IMG/VR virus record: IMGVR_UViG_3300031949_000003
Source of the DNA: a virus
Taxonomy: Duplodnaviria > Caudoviricetes
Direction: 5' to 3' (one strand)
Length of the DNA stretch: 64,000 nt
A program made the translations under genes and the position numbers. Each line of letters starts with the position of its first letter. Position 1 is the first letter of the stretch. The notes beneath the pieces were generated by a model. It saw only the letters and a list, made by a program, of their open reading frames with translations. It had not been told where the DNA came from and searched no databases. Below are positions 1,788-47,893 of this stretch, one piece after another.

Positions 1788-2177
1788 ATGCGTACCAAAA
1801 CCACCGCCCAGCTCGACGCCGACATCGCCGAGTCCCTCCGCACCCGGAAGAAATTCCGCCGCGACAAATCCACGCGGAAGAAACTTCCCGATGCCGCACG
1901 TGCCGCGATCGAGGATCGCGTCCTCACGATCATCGAGGGCACGTACAAGCGCTACGAAGAGTTCGGCAAATCCATCGGCCACAAGGAGCCGTGCCTCTCC
2001 GTCGGTCTCATCACCGACGATCTGCGCCAGCAGTCGGGCTTGCCCGAAGACTTCCGCTGGGCGACCAAGACGCGGCAGCGCACGTGGACGCGGACGATCC
2101 TCGAGTCGATGCGGCGTCGGGGATTGATCGGAGCGTCATTCGGCGTAGGGTCCCGCTGCTACGAGCCCAAACCATGA
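1788..2177 (+). CDS. hypothetical protein with N-terminal KTTAQLDADIAESL module
   Basis: ATG at 1788 in the 1683-2177 ORF; 3' end duplicated at about 10225-10300. Confidence 0.65.
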   Translation: MRTKTTAQLDADIAESLRTRKKFRRDKSTRKKLPDAARAAIEDRVLTIIEGTYKRYEEFGKSIGHKEPCLSVGLITDDLRQQSGLPEDFRWATKTRQRTWTRTILESMRRRGLIGASFGVGSRCYEPKP

Positions 2178-2283
2178 GCAAGCACCCAAAGCCCATGCCC
2201 ACGAGAGAGCTTCGCCGTCAGCGCTTTGTCGTCGGAGAAACGGAACCACGTAGCCGTTCGGACGCGCGACGTTCACCTTCAAT

Positions 2284-3213
2284 TCAATATCCGTAGATCC
2301 GCGCGAGACGCGCGAACTCATCCCGTACGAGACACGACGGCAGGCACTCCCACGTCAGGGGAACGTATGTCGAAGGACGCGGATGATGGTTGGTGCGAGC
2401 GTTCGTTGCCGCCAGGGCAGCTCGGATGCGTTCGAGGTCAACATCAATCTTGGCAGCCTCGCAAAGTGTCTTGAGGATCGTCGCGCCGCGAACCTCGCGC
2501 AGATCTTCCACGCGGTAACGACTATCCGTCCGACGCGCGCAACGACGGTTCATCTCCACCCACAGCCACATCGCGGCCTGAATGGGCGCGCGATCCCACT
2601 TCGCACAGAATCCCGGAAACGCCTTCTCGAGGAGGCCCCACGCGGGTCCCTCACCCGCACACAGCCATGAGTTGATCCAGGCGATGGGATCGCGCGTCTG
2701 GTGTGCGACCACGATGTCCGAAGGAACTGTGGCGAGTGCAAGGACTGCCTCCCAGGCGACTTCTGCCACGTTGCTGCTCTCAACCACACAACCATGGAGC
2801 GTGTAGATCGCCTCATGCCCACAGGAGATCCCAGCAGTTTGCAGTGCCTTGGCTGTAAACATGGTCCCAGAATGGCGCCGGTCTGTTCCGCGATAGAAAG
2901 TGGTTTCGCCTTTGAGGGGTCCGCTGCCCCATACATGATATTGGGCAGCTGACTTTTTCGTGGCGTGATGCCGTTTCGGCGCCTGACTGGGTAAAGGTGG
3001 CAAGCCGATCCGTTCGAGCTTGATCGCCTTGAACGTTTCCTCGGCGTTTCGACCCAATGCCGCGACCGCGTCACGGTGCCACTCCGGCGGGTTATAGCGA
3101 AAGGTCTTGGCGCTCCGACCGCGCTTGACCCAGTCTCGTTTTTGAGAGGCGGTCTCCTTCGAGGCTTCCCGCTCCAGCCATCGCTGGCCCGCTGACCACC
3201 AGTCGCTGCTCAT
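2284..3213 (-). CDS. fusion protein: unknown N-terminal domain + HHATKKSAAQ linker + sulfotransferase-family (P-loop) domain
   Basis: SGTMFTAKAL..GISCGHE, VAHQTRDPIAWINSW and RYRVEDL resemble the PAPS-binding motifs of sulfotransferases. Confidence 0.55.
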   Translation of the reverse strand: MSSDWWSAGQRWLEREASKETASQKRDWVKRGRSAKTFRYNPPEWHRDAVAALGRNAEETFKAIKLERIGLPPLPSQAPKRHHATKKSAAQYHVWGSGPLKGETTFYRGTDRRHSGTMFTAKALQTAGISCGHEAIYTLHGCVVESSNVAEVAWEAVLALATVPSDIVVAHQTRDPIAWINSWLCAGEGPAWGLLEKAFPGFCAKWDRAPIQAAMWLWVEMNRRCARRTDSRYRVEDLREVRGATILKTLCEAAKIDVDLERIRAALAATNARTNHHPRPSTYVPLTWECLPSCLVRDEFARLARIYGY

Positions 3214-3320
3214 GGCTGAAGTCTATCGTCTGGAGGGACAGAATTGAAGTTTCCGGCCTGTTTCACGCGCCTGGGCATCAGCAAGATGATCCCACCGAGC
3301 CCACTGACGGTCCAAACAGA

Positions 3321-3677
3321 TCAACGCTCGTACAACGGGAGCCCGGACGGAGGCGCGAAGATCAGATTGCCGACCCCACCACCAGCCATCCCCCCGAGGA
3401 TGAACCCCCAGACGCGATGGGATTTCCACAGCACGGCTCCCGCGACGGATCCGATCGCCGACAGTCCGAGCGAACGCTGGAATGCTTGGTGCTGAGCTTC
3501 GGTCCAGGGACGCTTCGACTGCCACGACGAGTAGCCGCGGCGAGGCGCGTACCGTCCGCGATCGGGCGTAGGTGGTGCGGGCGCGGGCGGAGCGAGTGGC
3601 ACCGGAGACTCCGTCTTCGGAGGTAGCTTATCGGCCCCGTTGCTGCCAATGAAGGATCGATATTCACCACGCGCCAT
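3321..3677 (-). CDS. small membrane protein, RGxY N-terminal family
   Basis: MARGEYRSFIG start, Pro-rich linker, two Gly-rich hydrophobic segments. Confidence 0.65.
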   Translation of the reverse strand: MARGEYRSFIGSNGADKLPPKTESPVPLAPPAPAPPTPDRGRYAPRRGYSSWQSKRPWTEAQHQAFQRSLGLSAIGSVAGAVLWKSHRVWGFILGGMAGGGVGNLIFAPPSGLPLYER

Positions 3678-3689
3678 GCGGAGATCTTA

Positions 3690-3986
3690 TCACGGGTCTT
3701 GGAGGTATTGCTTGAGCGACTCGGGCAGGAGTGCTCGACGGAGCTTGGCGAACGCGGCCTCGATCGCGGTCGCTTCGGTCGGGCCTGTGCCTTGGTAGAA
3801 GCCTGTCGCGTGGTGCACGACTGCTTCGAGTATTCCTTCGAAGGCTTCTCGGCGCGTCGACGCTTCGACGGCTTCGCTGAGTGACGGGTAGACGCGGATC
3901 GCGATGACTTCGAGGAGTAGGCGCTGCTCGCGCAGCTCGCCGAGCGTGGTCTCTTCGGTGATGTTTTTGGGATCGGGCACGCTCAA
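3690..3986 (-). CDS. hypothetical protein
   Basis: 98 aa ORF coupled to the upstream stop. Confidence 0.55.
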   Translation of the reverse strand: MSVPDPKNITEETTLGELREQRLLLEVIAIRVYPSLSEAVEASTRREAFEGILEAVVHHATGFYQGTGPTEATAIEAAFAKLRRALLPESLKQYLQDP

Positions 3987-46157: not shown

Positions 46158-46196
46158 ATCGCGATCGATTGCCTCCGCGATCGCGCGGATTGAAAC
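46158..46196 (+). repeat. solitary type I-C CRISPR-repeat-like hairpin, copy 1
   Basis: AT-CGCGATCG-attgcctccg-CGATCGCG-CGGATTGAAAC. Confidence 0.55.
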
Positions 46197-46215
46197 ACCC
46201 GAGCATGTCGCACTC

Positions 46216-46935
46216 ATGATAAGCCGCCCGAACGGTCGCTTCGATCGCCGCCGCCCCGACAAGGGACACCGCATCAACCACCGCATCCGTGCCCAGGAGG
46301 TGCGGGTCCTCTACGAGGGCGATCAGCTCGGCGTCATGCCGACGCACCAGGCGCTACGCGTCGCTGAGGACAAGGGCTTCGATCTCGTCGAGATCTCGCC
46401 GGGCGCGGCTCCGCCGGTGTGCCGGATCATGGACTACGGCAAGTTCAAGTACGAGGAAGCGAAGAAAAAGCAGCAGCAGCGCAAGAGCCAGACAACCTTC
46501 GAGACGAAGGAGATCAAGTTTCGGCCCAAGACCGACGAGCACGACATGGACTTCAAGGTGAAGCACATCCGTCGTTTCCTTGAAGAGGGCAACAAGGTCC
46601 GGCTCGCCGTCGTGTTTCGCGGACGCGAGATGGCGCATCCGCAGACGGGCAAGGCCGTCCTCGATCGCGTGGTAGATCGCTGCACGGACATCGCCTCGGT
46701 AGAAGTGACGCCGAACCTCGATGGGCGGCGCATGATCATGCTGGTCGCCCCCAAGCCAGGCGTCGTGCAGAAGGCGATCGCGCTCAAAAAGGCGCAGGCG
46801 CAAACGCAGATCGCCGCGCAGATCGCGACACGTGACGCGCGGTTCACGGATCCTCAAGACGAAGTGCTCGATGAGGACGCGATCAACGCGGACGTCGACA
46901 TCGACGAGACCGACGACGACGCGAACAGCGACTGA
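46216..46935 (+). CDS. infC: translation initiation factor IF-3 with acidic C-terminal tail
   Basis: INHRIRAQEVRV, DLVEIS, PPVCRIMDYGKFKYE, KEIKFRP and FRGRE motifs. Confidence 0.97.
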   Translation: MISRPNGRFDRRRPDKGHRINHRIRAQEVRVLYEGDQLGVMPTHQALRVAEDKGFDLVEISPGAAPPVCRIMDYGKFKYEEAKKKQQQRKSQTTFETKEIKFRPKTDEHDMDFKVKHIRRFLEEGNKVRLAVVFRGREMAHPQTGKAVLDRVVDRCTDIASVEVTPNLDGRRMIMLVAPKPGVVQKAIALKKAQAQTQIAAQIATRDARFTDPQDEVLDEDAINADVDIDETDDDANSD

Positions 46936-46937
46936 AC

Positions 46938-47351
46938 GTGCAGGTACGGCCTGACGAGATGGTCATGATCCGCAACACGAAAGCCGCTCAGAGGGAGCTA
47001 CTACGTGTGGCGCTCGTGCACCCTCCGTTTCCCATCGTGCTGCGCGTTCGGGACTTCCGCCGATCGCTGTTCGAGCTGGAAATGCTGATGACGGTGCCGG
47101 ACACGAACAGCGGGCGCTACATCTGCCAGACGCTCGTGTTCGAGTGTGCGCTTCCCGTCTCACGACACAAATTCATCCGCTTCGTTGAAACGGCGCTGCG
47201 CGAAGCGGTCATGCACGAACTCTACGAGAGCCTTCACGTAGATGGCAAACGAGTACGTGACCCGCATGAAAGCCGTGAGGCTGGACGCGCGTGGACCGTG
47301 GTCGAAGACATGAGATGCTTTACACGCGCGAGAACGCGCTCGCGGGCGTGA
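46938..47351 (+). CDS. hypothetical protein
   Basis: 137 aa, follows infC; HELYE..DPH motif. Confidence 0.6.
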   Translation: MQVRPDEMVMIRNTKAAQRELLRVALVHPPFPIVLRVRDFRRSLFELEMLMTVPDTNSGRYICQTLVFECALPVSRHKFIRFVETALREAVMHELYESLHVDGKRVRDPHESREAGRAWTVVEDMRCFTRARTRSRA

Positions 47352-47365
47352 CGATTGTCGATTCT

Positions 47366-47893
47366 TCACTCCTCGATAATCGCGCCAGCGCGCTCGGCCG
47401 CGGCGCGGCCCGCCTTCGTGAACGGGCCGACCGCGACCAGCTCAGGCGAGACCTCGGATCGGTACGCGTCGAACAGGACCTGCGACAGCCCGCGCCCGCG
47501 CGCGTCGGGATCGACCCAGATGTGGTGCACGTATGGTCGGCCGTACTCGACGGCGTAGGCGAGTCCGGCTAGCGGATCGGCCACGCCTCCGTTGGACAAA
47601 ACGATCAAGATCCGCCCCGCACGAGCCCCGCCGTAGTTCTTACCCGTCGTGAAGATCAAGTCCCAAGGTTCGGGCACGCCCACGAGCGAGATCTCGATCT
47701 GTTCGCGCCGCGTGATGCGCTCATCGATGAGCGCTTCGTGCACGCGCTCACGCGTCACGCGCTCCATGCCGCCGTTGCCGCCGTTGCCGCCGTTGCCGTT
47801 GCCTCGCGCCAGTGTCTCGTTGATCTCGCGATCGAGCTGTTTGGCCGGCGTCTTCTTCGCCGGAGCCGGTACCCGCGGCACGCGTTTCTTCAT
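47366..47893 (-). CDS. GNAT-family acetyltransferase with N-terminal KKTPAKQLDREINETL module
   Basis: VHHIWVDPDARGRGLSQVL acetyl-CoA-binding motif A. Confidence 0.8.
   Translation of the reverse strand: MKKRVPRVPAPAKKTPAKQLDREINETLARGNGNGGNGGNGGMERVTRERVHEALIDERITRREQIEISLVGVPEPWDLIFTTGKNYGGARAGRILIVLSNGGVADPLAGLAYAVEYGRPYVHHIWVDPDARGRGLSQVLFDAYRSEVSPELVAVGPFTKAGRAAAERAGAIIEE

Follow-up and report, generated by a model that had tools for sequence, protein, structure and literature searches.

A peptide of some 20 residues, almost invariant in sequence, in which a basic stretch is followed by a short amphipathic helix, is a clade-specific portable module of uncultivated huge phages and is carried by a large number of otherwise unrelated, basic proteins. 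The peptide (referred to as the tag) was studied in a 64,000-nucleotide stretch of viral DNA (the window) that belongs to a phage-like contig of 332,853 bp. Alignment of tag copies across carriers gives the full motif H-H-A-T-K-K-[ST]-P-A-Q-L-D-R-E-I-A-E-A-L-A-K, a two-part module of about 20 to 24 residues in all, with a basic head (H-H-A-T-K-K) and an N-capped helix of three turns ([ST]-P-A-Q-L-D-R-E-I-A-E-A-L-A-K). Nine positions are at least 90% conserved in 66 aligned segments from about 60 carriers, and almost all polar as well as hydrophobic residues of the helix are conserved. The helix contains a capping box (S/T-P-A-Q) and i/i+4 charge pairs, and the tag's linker is flexible and rich in Arg/Lys, Gly or Pro. 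The tag is undescribed in the protein family libraries and literature searched, and the initial annotation likewise knew of no named family. Its most likely role is that of a shared docking label.

A profile hidden Markov model (HMM) of the tag, derived from 104 database copies, was searched against the six-frame, stop-to-stop open reading frames (ORFs) of the window. Four strong in-frame copies and four to five degenerate or broken copies were found, and every further match scored 4.2 bits or less. The initial annotation had named seven sites, all of which are in frame and lie where they had been placed or a few bases off. Shuffled sequence yields no such copies: whole-frame scoring of 100 dinucleotide-preserving shuffles gave no match of 7 bits or more (maximum, 1.8 bits) while the real window has four of at least 11 bits. 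All copies are in the sense frame, and the other five frames of the window gave no signal.

The highest-scoring copy (47804-47863, 40 bits) lies in the N-terminal part of a 175-residue GNAT acetyltransferase (47366..47893, minus strand) and is followed by a Gly/Asn linker and the catalytic domain. A YgjP/SprT-like zinc metallopeptidase of 132 residues (41868..42266, minus strand; Pfam YgjP-like, E=1.1e-21, profile positions 100-206 of 207) has an N-terminal tag at 42222-42266 (HMM match 42228-42260, 23 bits). The canonical tag at 14752..14802 (plus strand; HMM match 14764-14802, 26.5 bits) lies near the C-terminus of ORF 14392-14832, with ten residues after it. The strong tag at 44586..44639 (minus strand; HMM match 44586-44636, 34 bits), annotated initially at 44592-44636, is present as proposed but has no intact gene around it: the start codon is absent and a stop follows 20 residues past the tag, downstream of a collagen-like gene (44732-45460). 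It matches the first part of protein P0138 (76% over 34 residues), and one scanned member of the set that includes P0138 (A6) matches Pfam DUF5661, so that by sequence comparison this is the remnant of a DUF5661-type tagged gene.

Several of the weaker copies have counterparts in other sequences. The diverged tag at 1788..1838 (plus strand; HMM match 1788-1817, 8.6 bits) forms the very N-terminus of ORF 1788-2177 (129 residues) and has A in place of R and D in place of E in its core; the weak homologues P0109 and P0060 have canonical tags at their N-termini. ORF 5129-5668 contains a degenerate internal tag (5459..5500, minus strand; HMM match 5459-5488, 8.7 bits) that lacks Q and reads V-L-D-R-E-I-A-S-V-I, a variant seen again at L105:10916-10945 (14 bits). 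A two-module gene (41009..41582, minus strand) is broken by a frameshift, as had been suspected for 41207-41255: the reading frame shifts by one base within the tag (41217-41261; HMM match 41226-41258, 7.2 bits), so that the upstream module is ORF 41214-41582 and the downstream module is read in the next frame as far as the stop at 41006-41008. This second module has its homologue in the segment of P0119 behind that protein's internal tag, and the N-terminal modules of the two proteins are unrelated. An orphan half-tag that the initial annotation did not include, V-K-K-D-P-A-Q-L-D-R-Q (42318..42350, minus strand; HMM match 42321-42347, 11 bits), sits within an open frame of 27 codons, in the spacer directly upstream of the peptidase gene.

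The at least seven copies first claimed are a small part of the whole. Searched with the profile, 1.84 billion representative proteins yielded 525 tag-carrying clusters at 50% identity (E<=0.001), and word-seeded searching gave 324 matches in 5.8 billion proteins. Relatives, scanned with the profile as had been suggested, are tag dense, with five tags in 13.5 kb of one 461-kb contig and three in 5.4 kb of another; in some loci as many as one gene in three is tagged. The carriers lie on both strands and are non-homologous, as reported before, since masking the tag splits the best 120 database matches into 40 unrelated clusters. They include GNAT proteins, YgjP/SprT-like zinc peptidases (zincins), DUF6496, DUF5661, ParB_N/ParB-like and winged-helix proteins, but the majority belong to no known family. 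By the searches used, the full tag was detected in none of 185,579 cellular species genomes, where its 8-residue core occurs 28 times and never behind the K-K-T-P-A prefix. It had no match in 50,697 phage records and is missing from LR745208, a distantly related phage of 485 kb.

The tag occupies several positions in its carriers. Among 149 tags, 56 are N-terminal (about 38%), beginning a few codons or less from the start codon, 90 are internal between modules (about 60%) and 3 are C-terminal. The carriers are small (median, 190 residues) and strongly basic (median pI, 9.9, with 91% above 8) compared with the 74 untagged proteins of the window (median pI, 6.85), and their modules are small and fast-evolving. 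Genes around the tagged genes in the window and at L098/L105 are accessory, encoding DnaJ, IF3, a release-factor (RF-1) domain protein, RNA ligase, NUDIX and sugar enzymes, and no head gene was found there.

The GNAT carrier provides a view of the predicted structure. Pfam matches of ORF 47366..47893 to GNAT are weak, but its AlphaFold2 model has a GNAT fold, and Foldseek retrieves HAT1, RimI-type and AAC enzymes (probability, 0.99-1.0). In the model the tag is a helix (residues 16-30, pLDDT of about 45 to 55), residues 31-39 form a disordered linker and the core is at about 90. In two carrier families an isolated low-pLDDT tag helix, a disordered linker and a confident core are predicted, which fits the basic stretch and amphipathic helix proposed initially and suggests, at low model confidence, a free helix on a flexible tether. 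The homologues of the GNAT protein on huge contigs number 90; for 64 of them, newly fetched, the full N-terminus was read, and nearly all of these have the tag. The idea that GNAT homologues elsewhere lack it holds for the most distant ones, but the tag is kept down to about 65% identity.

That the tag binds a partner is probable when all destinations are taken together. The explanation we put first, tentatively, is that the tag is a docking (address) helix on a tether, placed N-terminally to or between the modules of strongly basic proteins, with the interior of the virion as the favoured destination. A single shared receptor would bind its Leu-Ile-Leu face, and many unrelated cargo modules would thereby reach the same place, possibly a mass of DNA-associated protein that enters the prohead and exits with the genome. 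The virion as destination is itself somewhat doubtful and is suggested by analogy with phage T4, in which the capsid targeting sequence (CTS) alone is conserved among diverse internal proteins (PMC3012670). Like the T4 CTS of IPI, IPII and IPIII, which works in this way and is able to carry foreign cargo, the tag is a short conserved peptide on unrelated, hypervariable, basic phage proteins; the likeness is one of organisation, and no similarity of sequence was shown. The small basic carriers and the hypervariable cargo behind a conserved tag suit a T4-like reading. The T4 prohead protease cuts at an Ile/Leu-x-Glu pattern, which the end of the tag helix (E-I-A-E) fits, and exchange of T-even internal-protein genes beside the conserved part has been described. 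However, the T4 CTS has about 10 residues, is strictly N-terminal, is removed after packaging and occurs on a handful of proteins, whereas the tag is longer and two-part, is mostly internal with a few C-terminal copies, and occurs in at least 525 protein clusters. The accessory surroundings of the tagged genes, with no head gene nearby, also argue against the virion, and a tagged share of one gene in three, as reached in some loci, would be high for virion cargo.

The giant phages phiKZ, 201phi2-1 and SPN3US, to which a DNA search found no relationship, offer a second comparison since they too are huge and load dozens of head proteins. Giant phages load about 50 head proteins, several with cleaved propeptides (PMC10052503, PMC7411985), and in many of these proteins the cleavage takes place at a short motif that recurs, in some cases at more than one site in a protein (PMC10052503). 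These N-terminal propeptides of head and ejection proteins have 20 to 254 residues and are unconserved between carriers apart from a three-residue cleavage motif ending in Glu, whereas in the tag conservation extends over the whole helix, and H-A-T-K is the candidate site. Encapsulation peptides of bacterial microcompartments and cargo-loading peptides of encapsulins are amphipathic helices or peptides that are joined by a flexible linker to diverse enzymes, at either terminus or between domains, and that dock cargo inside a protein shell. The tag resembles them in being a short helix on a flexible linker with diverse carriers and several positions. Those peptides are weakly conserved and encoded beside shell genes in cellular operons, whereas the tag is near-invariant, its phage carriers are of unassigned function, and no shell is known for it other than a presumed capsid.

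The same docking helix may instead have its destination inside the infected cell, as a sorting signal or hub-binding motif rather than a packaging signal. The candidates are a phage-built compartment, a replication or translation factory, the nucleoid, the ribosome, or a chaperone (phage DnaJ with host DnaK). Taken as a whole this is unlikely, but much agrees with it: tags are found at any position, as short linear motifs are; their local density implies tens of carriers per genome; the neighbours are accessory or translation related (DnaJ, IF3, the RF-1 domain protein and RNA ligase); and the carriers are basic, like nucleic-acid-associated proteins, and include the DNA-binding ParB_N and winged-helix modules. 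The present evidence fits the virion equally well, however, and the 64 kb showed no gene for a shell, tubulin or another part of a compartment.

A second motif, R-R-S-H-A-T-K, occurs at module boundaries. H-[AS]-T is found 152 times in the carriers against 12.9 expected (permuted tripeptides, 4 to 31), and Arg is favoured at -2 and -3. Given a virion destination, R-R-S-H-A-T-K would be a processing site, although cleavage at H-A-T is doubtful and is purely something we infer. The tag could alternatively be a recognition element whose helix docks a protease, the tagged GNAT or a kinase; the docked enzyme would act on the neighbouring H-A-T-K-K site, so that multi-module proteins would behave as small polyproteins. 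H-A-T stands exactly 8 to 9 residues ahead of Q in 56 of 94 internal tags (60%) and also alone, with Arg-Arg before it, at other module boundaries, and the carriers include both a zinc peptidase and a protein-acetyltransferase-like GNAT. A-S and A-T bonds are, moreover, typical of assemblin-type cleavage sites. H-[AS]-[TK] also follows within 30 residues of 18.5% of tags against a background of 10%, but this enrichment is weak. N-terminal tags lack H-A-T and have nothing upstream to release, and H-A-T may be merely a favoured linker. We consider a recognition element quite unlikely.

Along with the internal position of about 60% of copies and the H-A-T-K motif, the role of tags in shuffling goes beyond the initial annotation. 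Orthologue pairs part ways exactly at the tag, where modules are exchanged, and the window contains half-tags and a tag-bearing gene remnant; by these comparisons tags are junctions of module shuffling, and the near-identity of their coding sequence from gene to gene would allow recombination to exchange modules there. The HATKK pieces of the initial annotation prove to be the N-terminal half of the full motif, which is complete in orthologues. At the module junction of ORF 2284-3213 (2941..2970, minus strand) H-H-A-T-K-K-S-A-A-Q is followed by divergent sequence; the first 90 or so residues are common to P0143 and P0216, and P0143 has a full tag at this junction and a different C-terminal module. 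ORF 6426-6965 has two H-A-T-[KA] linker motifs without a helix (6603..6650, minus strand), whereas in its orthologue P0260 (identity of 76% across the first 116 residues) H-A-T-K-K and a full helix stand there, ahead of a different C-terminal module. The helix is therefore dispensable for at least some carriers, which counts against docking.

Such losses, together with swaps made exactly at tags and the remnants they leave, would suit a tag that has no partner and is a self-stabilised spacer or solubility helix, persisting mainly as a junction that promotes recombination. The conserved polar residues fit such a helix, being explicable by the capping box and charge pairs, or one enclosed on all sides. 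However, the conservation at nine positions, with free synonymous change, is far above the needs of a spacer, and recombination requires DNA identity while copies across genomes show many synonymous differences. Helix positions 3 and 7 (i, i+4) covary, which also points to a structural or binding constraint: the combinations D/A (110 copies), Q/D (17) and Q/N (4) stand against Q/A (2) and D/D (1). A tag without a partner is thus improbable.

This covariation, the in-frame sense orientation of all copies and the synonymous variation at every degenerate core codon indicate, from the sequences, that selection acts on the peptide and not the DNA, as the initial annotation held. A nucleic-acid signal (a protein-binding site, a recombination site or a translation-start mRNA element) is very improbable on these grounds, to which conservative replacements, the 60% of copies inside genes and the lack of an Rfam match in the window can be added, even though N-terminal copies lie close to start codons and core Leu and Arg codons are somewhat more uniform (CTC, 14/17; CGC, 13/14) than genome usage, which most codons follow. 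Among the few weak matches in the PDB are designed coiled coils (5eza and 7nfp, E about 0.8) whose E-I-A-x-A-L-K heptads agree with R-E-I-A-E-A-L-A, the second half of the tag, but the tag covers no more than one and a half heptads and the matches lack significance, so that they would point only to a classical a/d/e hydrophobic stripe in the tag helix.

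Four copies of the tag, the basic head H-H-A-T-K-K followed by a short amphipathic helix, stand far above background in the window. An HMM built from 104 non-identical database copies was scanned against all stop-to-stop frames of its six-frame translation, giving four copies at 23-40 bits, against a top score of 1.8 bits in 100 dinucleotide-preserving shuffles of the window. Four further copies scored 7-11 bits, and all remaining matches scored 4.2 bits or less. Chance or base composition as the source of the copies is ruled out by the scan and the shuffles. Every peptide that the initial annotation listed is present in frame at its site, but two of the copies are damaged. 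The tag at 41217-41261(-) is broken by an apparent 1-base frameshift, after which the next frame leads into a module homologous to the region following the internal tag of the database protein P0119, and the strong tag at 44586-44639(-) lies in a decayed gene remnant that has no start codon and is shortened relative to P0138. Intact N-terminal tags are found at 1788-1838(+) (HMM scan and translation), on a YgjP/SprT-like zinc peptidase (gene 41868-42266(-); Pfam E=1e-21) and on the GNAT (gene 47366-47893(-)). There is also a degenerate internal tag at 5459-5500(-), a C-terminal tag at 14752-14802(+) and an orphan half-tag (the N-terminal part of the motif without the full helix) in the spacer at 42318-42350(-). 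In total, the window holds three N-terminal, two internal and one C-terminal tag, and several broken ones besides.

The GNAT protein of the window is recorded on a 332,853-bp contig, and the sole match to the window among 50,697 deposited phage records is an ATPase, 46% identical, of LR745208, a distantly related 485-kb uncultured phage. The window therefore comes from an uncultivated huge phage. Profile matches to the copies number 324 among 5.8 billion proteins, many of them on contigs of 100-500 kb. When 1.84 billion cluster representatives were searched exhaustively with a profile, 525 clusters had the tag at E<=0.001, with the full consensus [RS]-H-H-A-T-K-K-[ST]-P-A-Q-L-[DQ]-R-E-I-[AD]-E-[AV]-L-A-K. 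Tags can be dense in these relatives: a 13.5-kb piece of a 461-kb contig has five, and a 5.4-kb piece of a second contig has three. Relatives in IMG/VR amount to a single 10.8-kb contig; the six-residue core occurs there in 67 stretches, only one of which holds the whole tag. A DNA pattern for the eight core residues gave 28 matches when 185,579 species genomes were searched; all of them lie in unrelated helices and none has the K-K-T-P-A prefix. An ordinary coiled-coil word is rejected as an explanation: where the core stands alone, as it does 28 times in cellular genomes and about 65 times in IMG/VR, the prefix is missing and the contexts are unrelated. Specificity resides in the whole module and not in the core. 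The tag had no tblastn match in the 50,697 phage records and LR745208 does not carry it; by these searches it is specific to this phage group. It was initially described as having no named family, which holds for Pfam-A, NCBIfam, PHROGs and PADLOC, whose models align to cargo domains only; PF27025, a precomputed assignment for the carriers P0077 and P0116, was left outside this comparison. The tag core strings were not found in a literature search, and the literature on capsid targeting and huge-phage motifs yielded comparators only.

Apart from the tag, the carriers are non-homologous, as originally claimed: they have different folds, and once the tag was masked, the 120 listed profile matches fell into 40 unrelated clusters. 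Carriers are small and basic (median 190 residues; median pI 9.9, with 91% above pI 8), whereas the 74 untagged proteins of the window have a median pI of 6.85. The 143 newly fetched proteins of the 150 best representatives hold 149 tags: 56 at the N-terminus, 90 between modules and 3 at the C-terminus. Pfam assigns six families to the 143 carrier representatives (DUF6496, DUF5661, SPOR, winged helix, ParB_N and one spurious match). After the GNAT, the cargo met most often is a 189-residue family that has no significant Foldseek match and none in the ESM Atlas, and for which VIA-align recovers a helical hairpin only (Z up to 6.3).

The core structure of the GNAT matches protein acetyltransferases. 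It is a core gene of the tag-bearing phage group and has 90 homologues, many of which are on huge contigs. The initial annotation asked whether GNAT homologues elsewhere lack the tag: it is present down to about 65% identity, degenerate in divergent members and missing from the most distant ones. Directly after the tag and a Gly/Asn linker, residue 43 of the GNAT (window 47366-47893(-)) is Met in 26 of 26 aligned homologues, and several database gene calls begin there, giving forms of 133-135 residues. Because this Met is invariant and used in those gene calls, it may be an internal start that would yield a form without the tag. In the window it is not preceded by a visible Shine-Dalgarno sequence.

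The amphipathic helix proposed in the initial annotation agrees with structure prediction. AlphaFold2 with family alignments models the tag as a lone helix, at residues 16-30 of the GNAT and 5-17 of the 189-residue family (pLDDT 45-55 in both, which is low), joined to the confident core by a disordered, flexible linker (residues 31-39 in the GNAT). By helix rules, S/T-P-A-Q would form a capping box, the Leu, Ile and Leu at i, i+4 and i+8 would form a stripe along the helix, charge pairs would lie within it, and Ala-Lys/Gly-Pro would end it. A search of the PDB with the tag gave insignificant matches only (a tagatose epimerase helix and designed E-I-A-x-A-L-K coiled coils). Four tag copies co-folded with an alignment scored 0.08 (mark 0.42), which speaks neither for nor against self-association.

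The proposed mechanism is that of a tethered docking helix through which a large number of small basic modules, unrelated to one another, would reach the same receptor. Summed over three readings of the destination, it is quite probable that the tag binds some partner. The destination tentatively favoured, by analogy, is co-packaging with the genome, as for the internal proteins of phage T4, which are basic and hypervariable and have a short targeting peptide as their sole common part (PMC3012670). The tag likewise is the sole part common to unrelated phage proteins (40 clusters among 120 carriers; 525 clusters overall). The T4 capsid targeting sequence, which sends its protein into the prohead and is cut off there by the prohead protease, differs in that it lies at the extreme N-terminus of the precursor, whereas the tag is N-terminal in only 56 of 149 cases. 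Co-packaging is held with no great confidence because most tags are internal, because the genes nearby are accessory ones and not structural, and because the share of tagged genes is high. In giant phages, about 50 head proteins are loaded, several with processed propeptides (PMC10052503; PMC7411985). The recurring cut motif of those propeptides ends in Glu, whereas the recurring motif here is R-R-S-H-A-T-K.

This is a second motif, distinct from the helix. In the carriers, H-[AS]-T is found 152 times where 12.9 would be expected (permuted tripeptides, 4-31); it has its own consensus, R-R-S-H-A-T-[KRM]-K, and is located at module boundaries. In the called genes of the window (16,055 residues), H-[AS]-T-[KRMI] is observed five times against 0.7 expected; the only linker-like copies in the window are the half-tag at 2941-2970, absent from the gene call, and the pair in ORF 6426-6965. 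A bolder reading, still doubtful, is that these signals form the sorting code of this huge-phage clade. The near-invariant helix with its H-A-T-K-K head would send some tens of small basic proteins per genome, perhaps a hundred, to one and the same receptor, R-R-S-H-A-T-K would be a putative cut site of multi-module precursors, and exon-shuffling-like recombination at the shared coding sequence would supply new cargo.

An intracellular hub or compartment as the destination is rather unlikely. Like the targeting peptides of microcompartments and encapsulins, the tag is predicted to be a short amphipathic helix, flexibly linked, and it lies at the ends of the cargo or between its domains. Those systems encode a cognate shell protein with the cargo, and the Pfam and PHROG matches of the 112 window proteins include no shell family (the window being 64 kb of 333 kb). 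Less probable again is that the tag is a docking site for an enzyme that would act at H-A-T, which lies exactly 8-9 residues upstream of the tag Gln in 56 of 94 internal tags.

Orthologue pairs part ways exactly at the tag. ORF 2284-3213 of the window shares its first approximately 90 residues with P0143, retains only H-H-A-T-K-K-S-A-A-Q at the junction and continues into an unrelated module. In ORF 6426-6965, 116 residues are common to P0260, and H-A-T linkers stand where P0260 bears a full tag and a different module. Gene 41009-41582 has the post-tag module alone in common with P0119. This exact divergence, the orphan half-tag and the remnant show that recombination and gene turnover have their junctions at the tags. 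That the tag is a spacer or recombination junction without any partner is improbable.

The initial annotation ascribed the conservation of the tag to selection on the peptide and not on the DNA. Across 17 non-identical DNA copies (those of the window plus five loci), synonymous variation is seen at every degenerate core codon (Gln CAG/CAA 10:5, Asp GAC/GAT 12:4, Ala GCC/GCG 8:5, Glu GAG/GAA 6:5, and Leu as CTC, CTG or CTT), in ratios that mostly follow the codon usage of the window. The tag copies are without exception in frame and in sense orientation. In addition, helix positions 3 and 7, four residues apart, covary (D+A 110, Q+D/N 21, mixed 3), which is a helix-face constraint. Synonymous variation, orientation and covariation therefore bear out selection on the peptide. 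A DNA-level repeat is ruled out by reading frame, strand and synonymous variation; Rfam and tRNA searches of the window found nothing, and a nucleic-acid signal is highly improbable. The helix occurs as two "alleles" among P0121-P0263, Q-L-D-R-E-I-A-E and Q-L-Q-R-E-I-D-E, in which the acidic residue is shifted by one helical turn, and contig L101 bears both.

Most huge-phage genes have no known function, and a tag common to at least 525 clusters would place hundreds of them in one functional class and offer a direct route to the common partner of the carriers. Should the tag serve for packaging or sorting, it would be only the second known sequence-defined cargo label of tailed phages, and a position-independent one usable for loading proteins into large capsids or compartments. 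A sorting code, if true, would be a viral counterpart of nuclear-localisation and signal-peptide systems on a far larger scale than the T4 sequence. Module swaps at tags show how these phages assemble new genes. The tag is also a clean marker of this phage group in metagenomes, and it aids the correction of gene calls at frameshifts, remnants and alternative starts.

The window, at 64% G+C, carries about 120 short genes, the recognisable ones being accessory. They include genes for a nucleotide-sugar epimerase, a radical-SAM protein, PAPS-reductase-like proteins, a SLOG domain, DUF488, GIY-YIG-type endonucleases, and Arc-like and zinc-finger proteins, as well as a complete type-I DnaJ (J domain, zinc-finger domain and C-terminal domains; 11769-12896(+)) and a complete IF3 (46216-46935(+)). 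The related DNA piece L098 encodes an RF-1-domain protein and an RNA ligase (12566-13231), and translation and chaperone genes therefore adjoin tagged genes. The capsid protein of LR745208 (L106:1318-2193(-)) is a 291-residue HK97-type protein that lacks a delta domain. Its database relatives number more than 2000, of which the best 120 listed are at least 87% identical and many are on contigs of 200-530 kb, which suggests that this group of huge phages is very large and uniform; the tagless LR745208 is the examined member. Within the window, a T-A-C-G-A-T box 4 nt upstream of the GTG start of the tagged peptidase (42267-42285(-)) fits a leaderless start. A collagen-like protein with long G-P-T/G-S-T triplet repeats is encoded at 44732-45460(-), and the tag remnant lies just 3' of its stop codon in a different frame. 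The orphan half-tag and the tag remnant are each followed by a G+C-rich hairpin-like word, C-T-T-G-C-G-G-G-C within GCCC..GGGC (42267-42300(-) and 44540-44570(-)), which may be a terminator or a common piece of a former gene.
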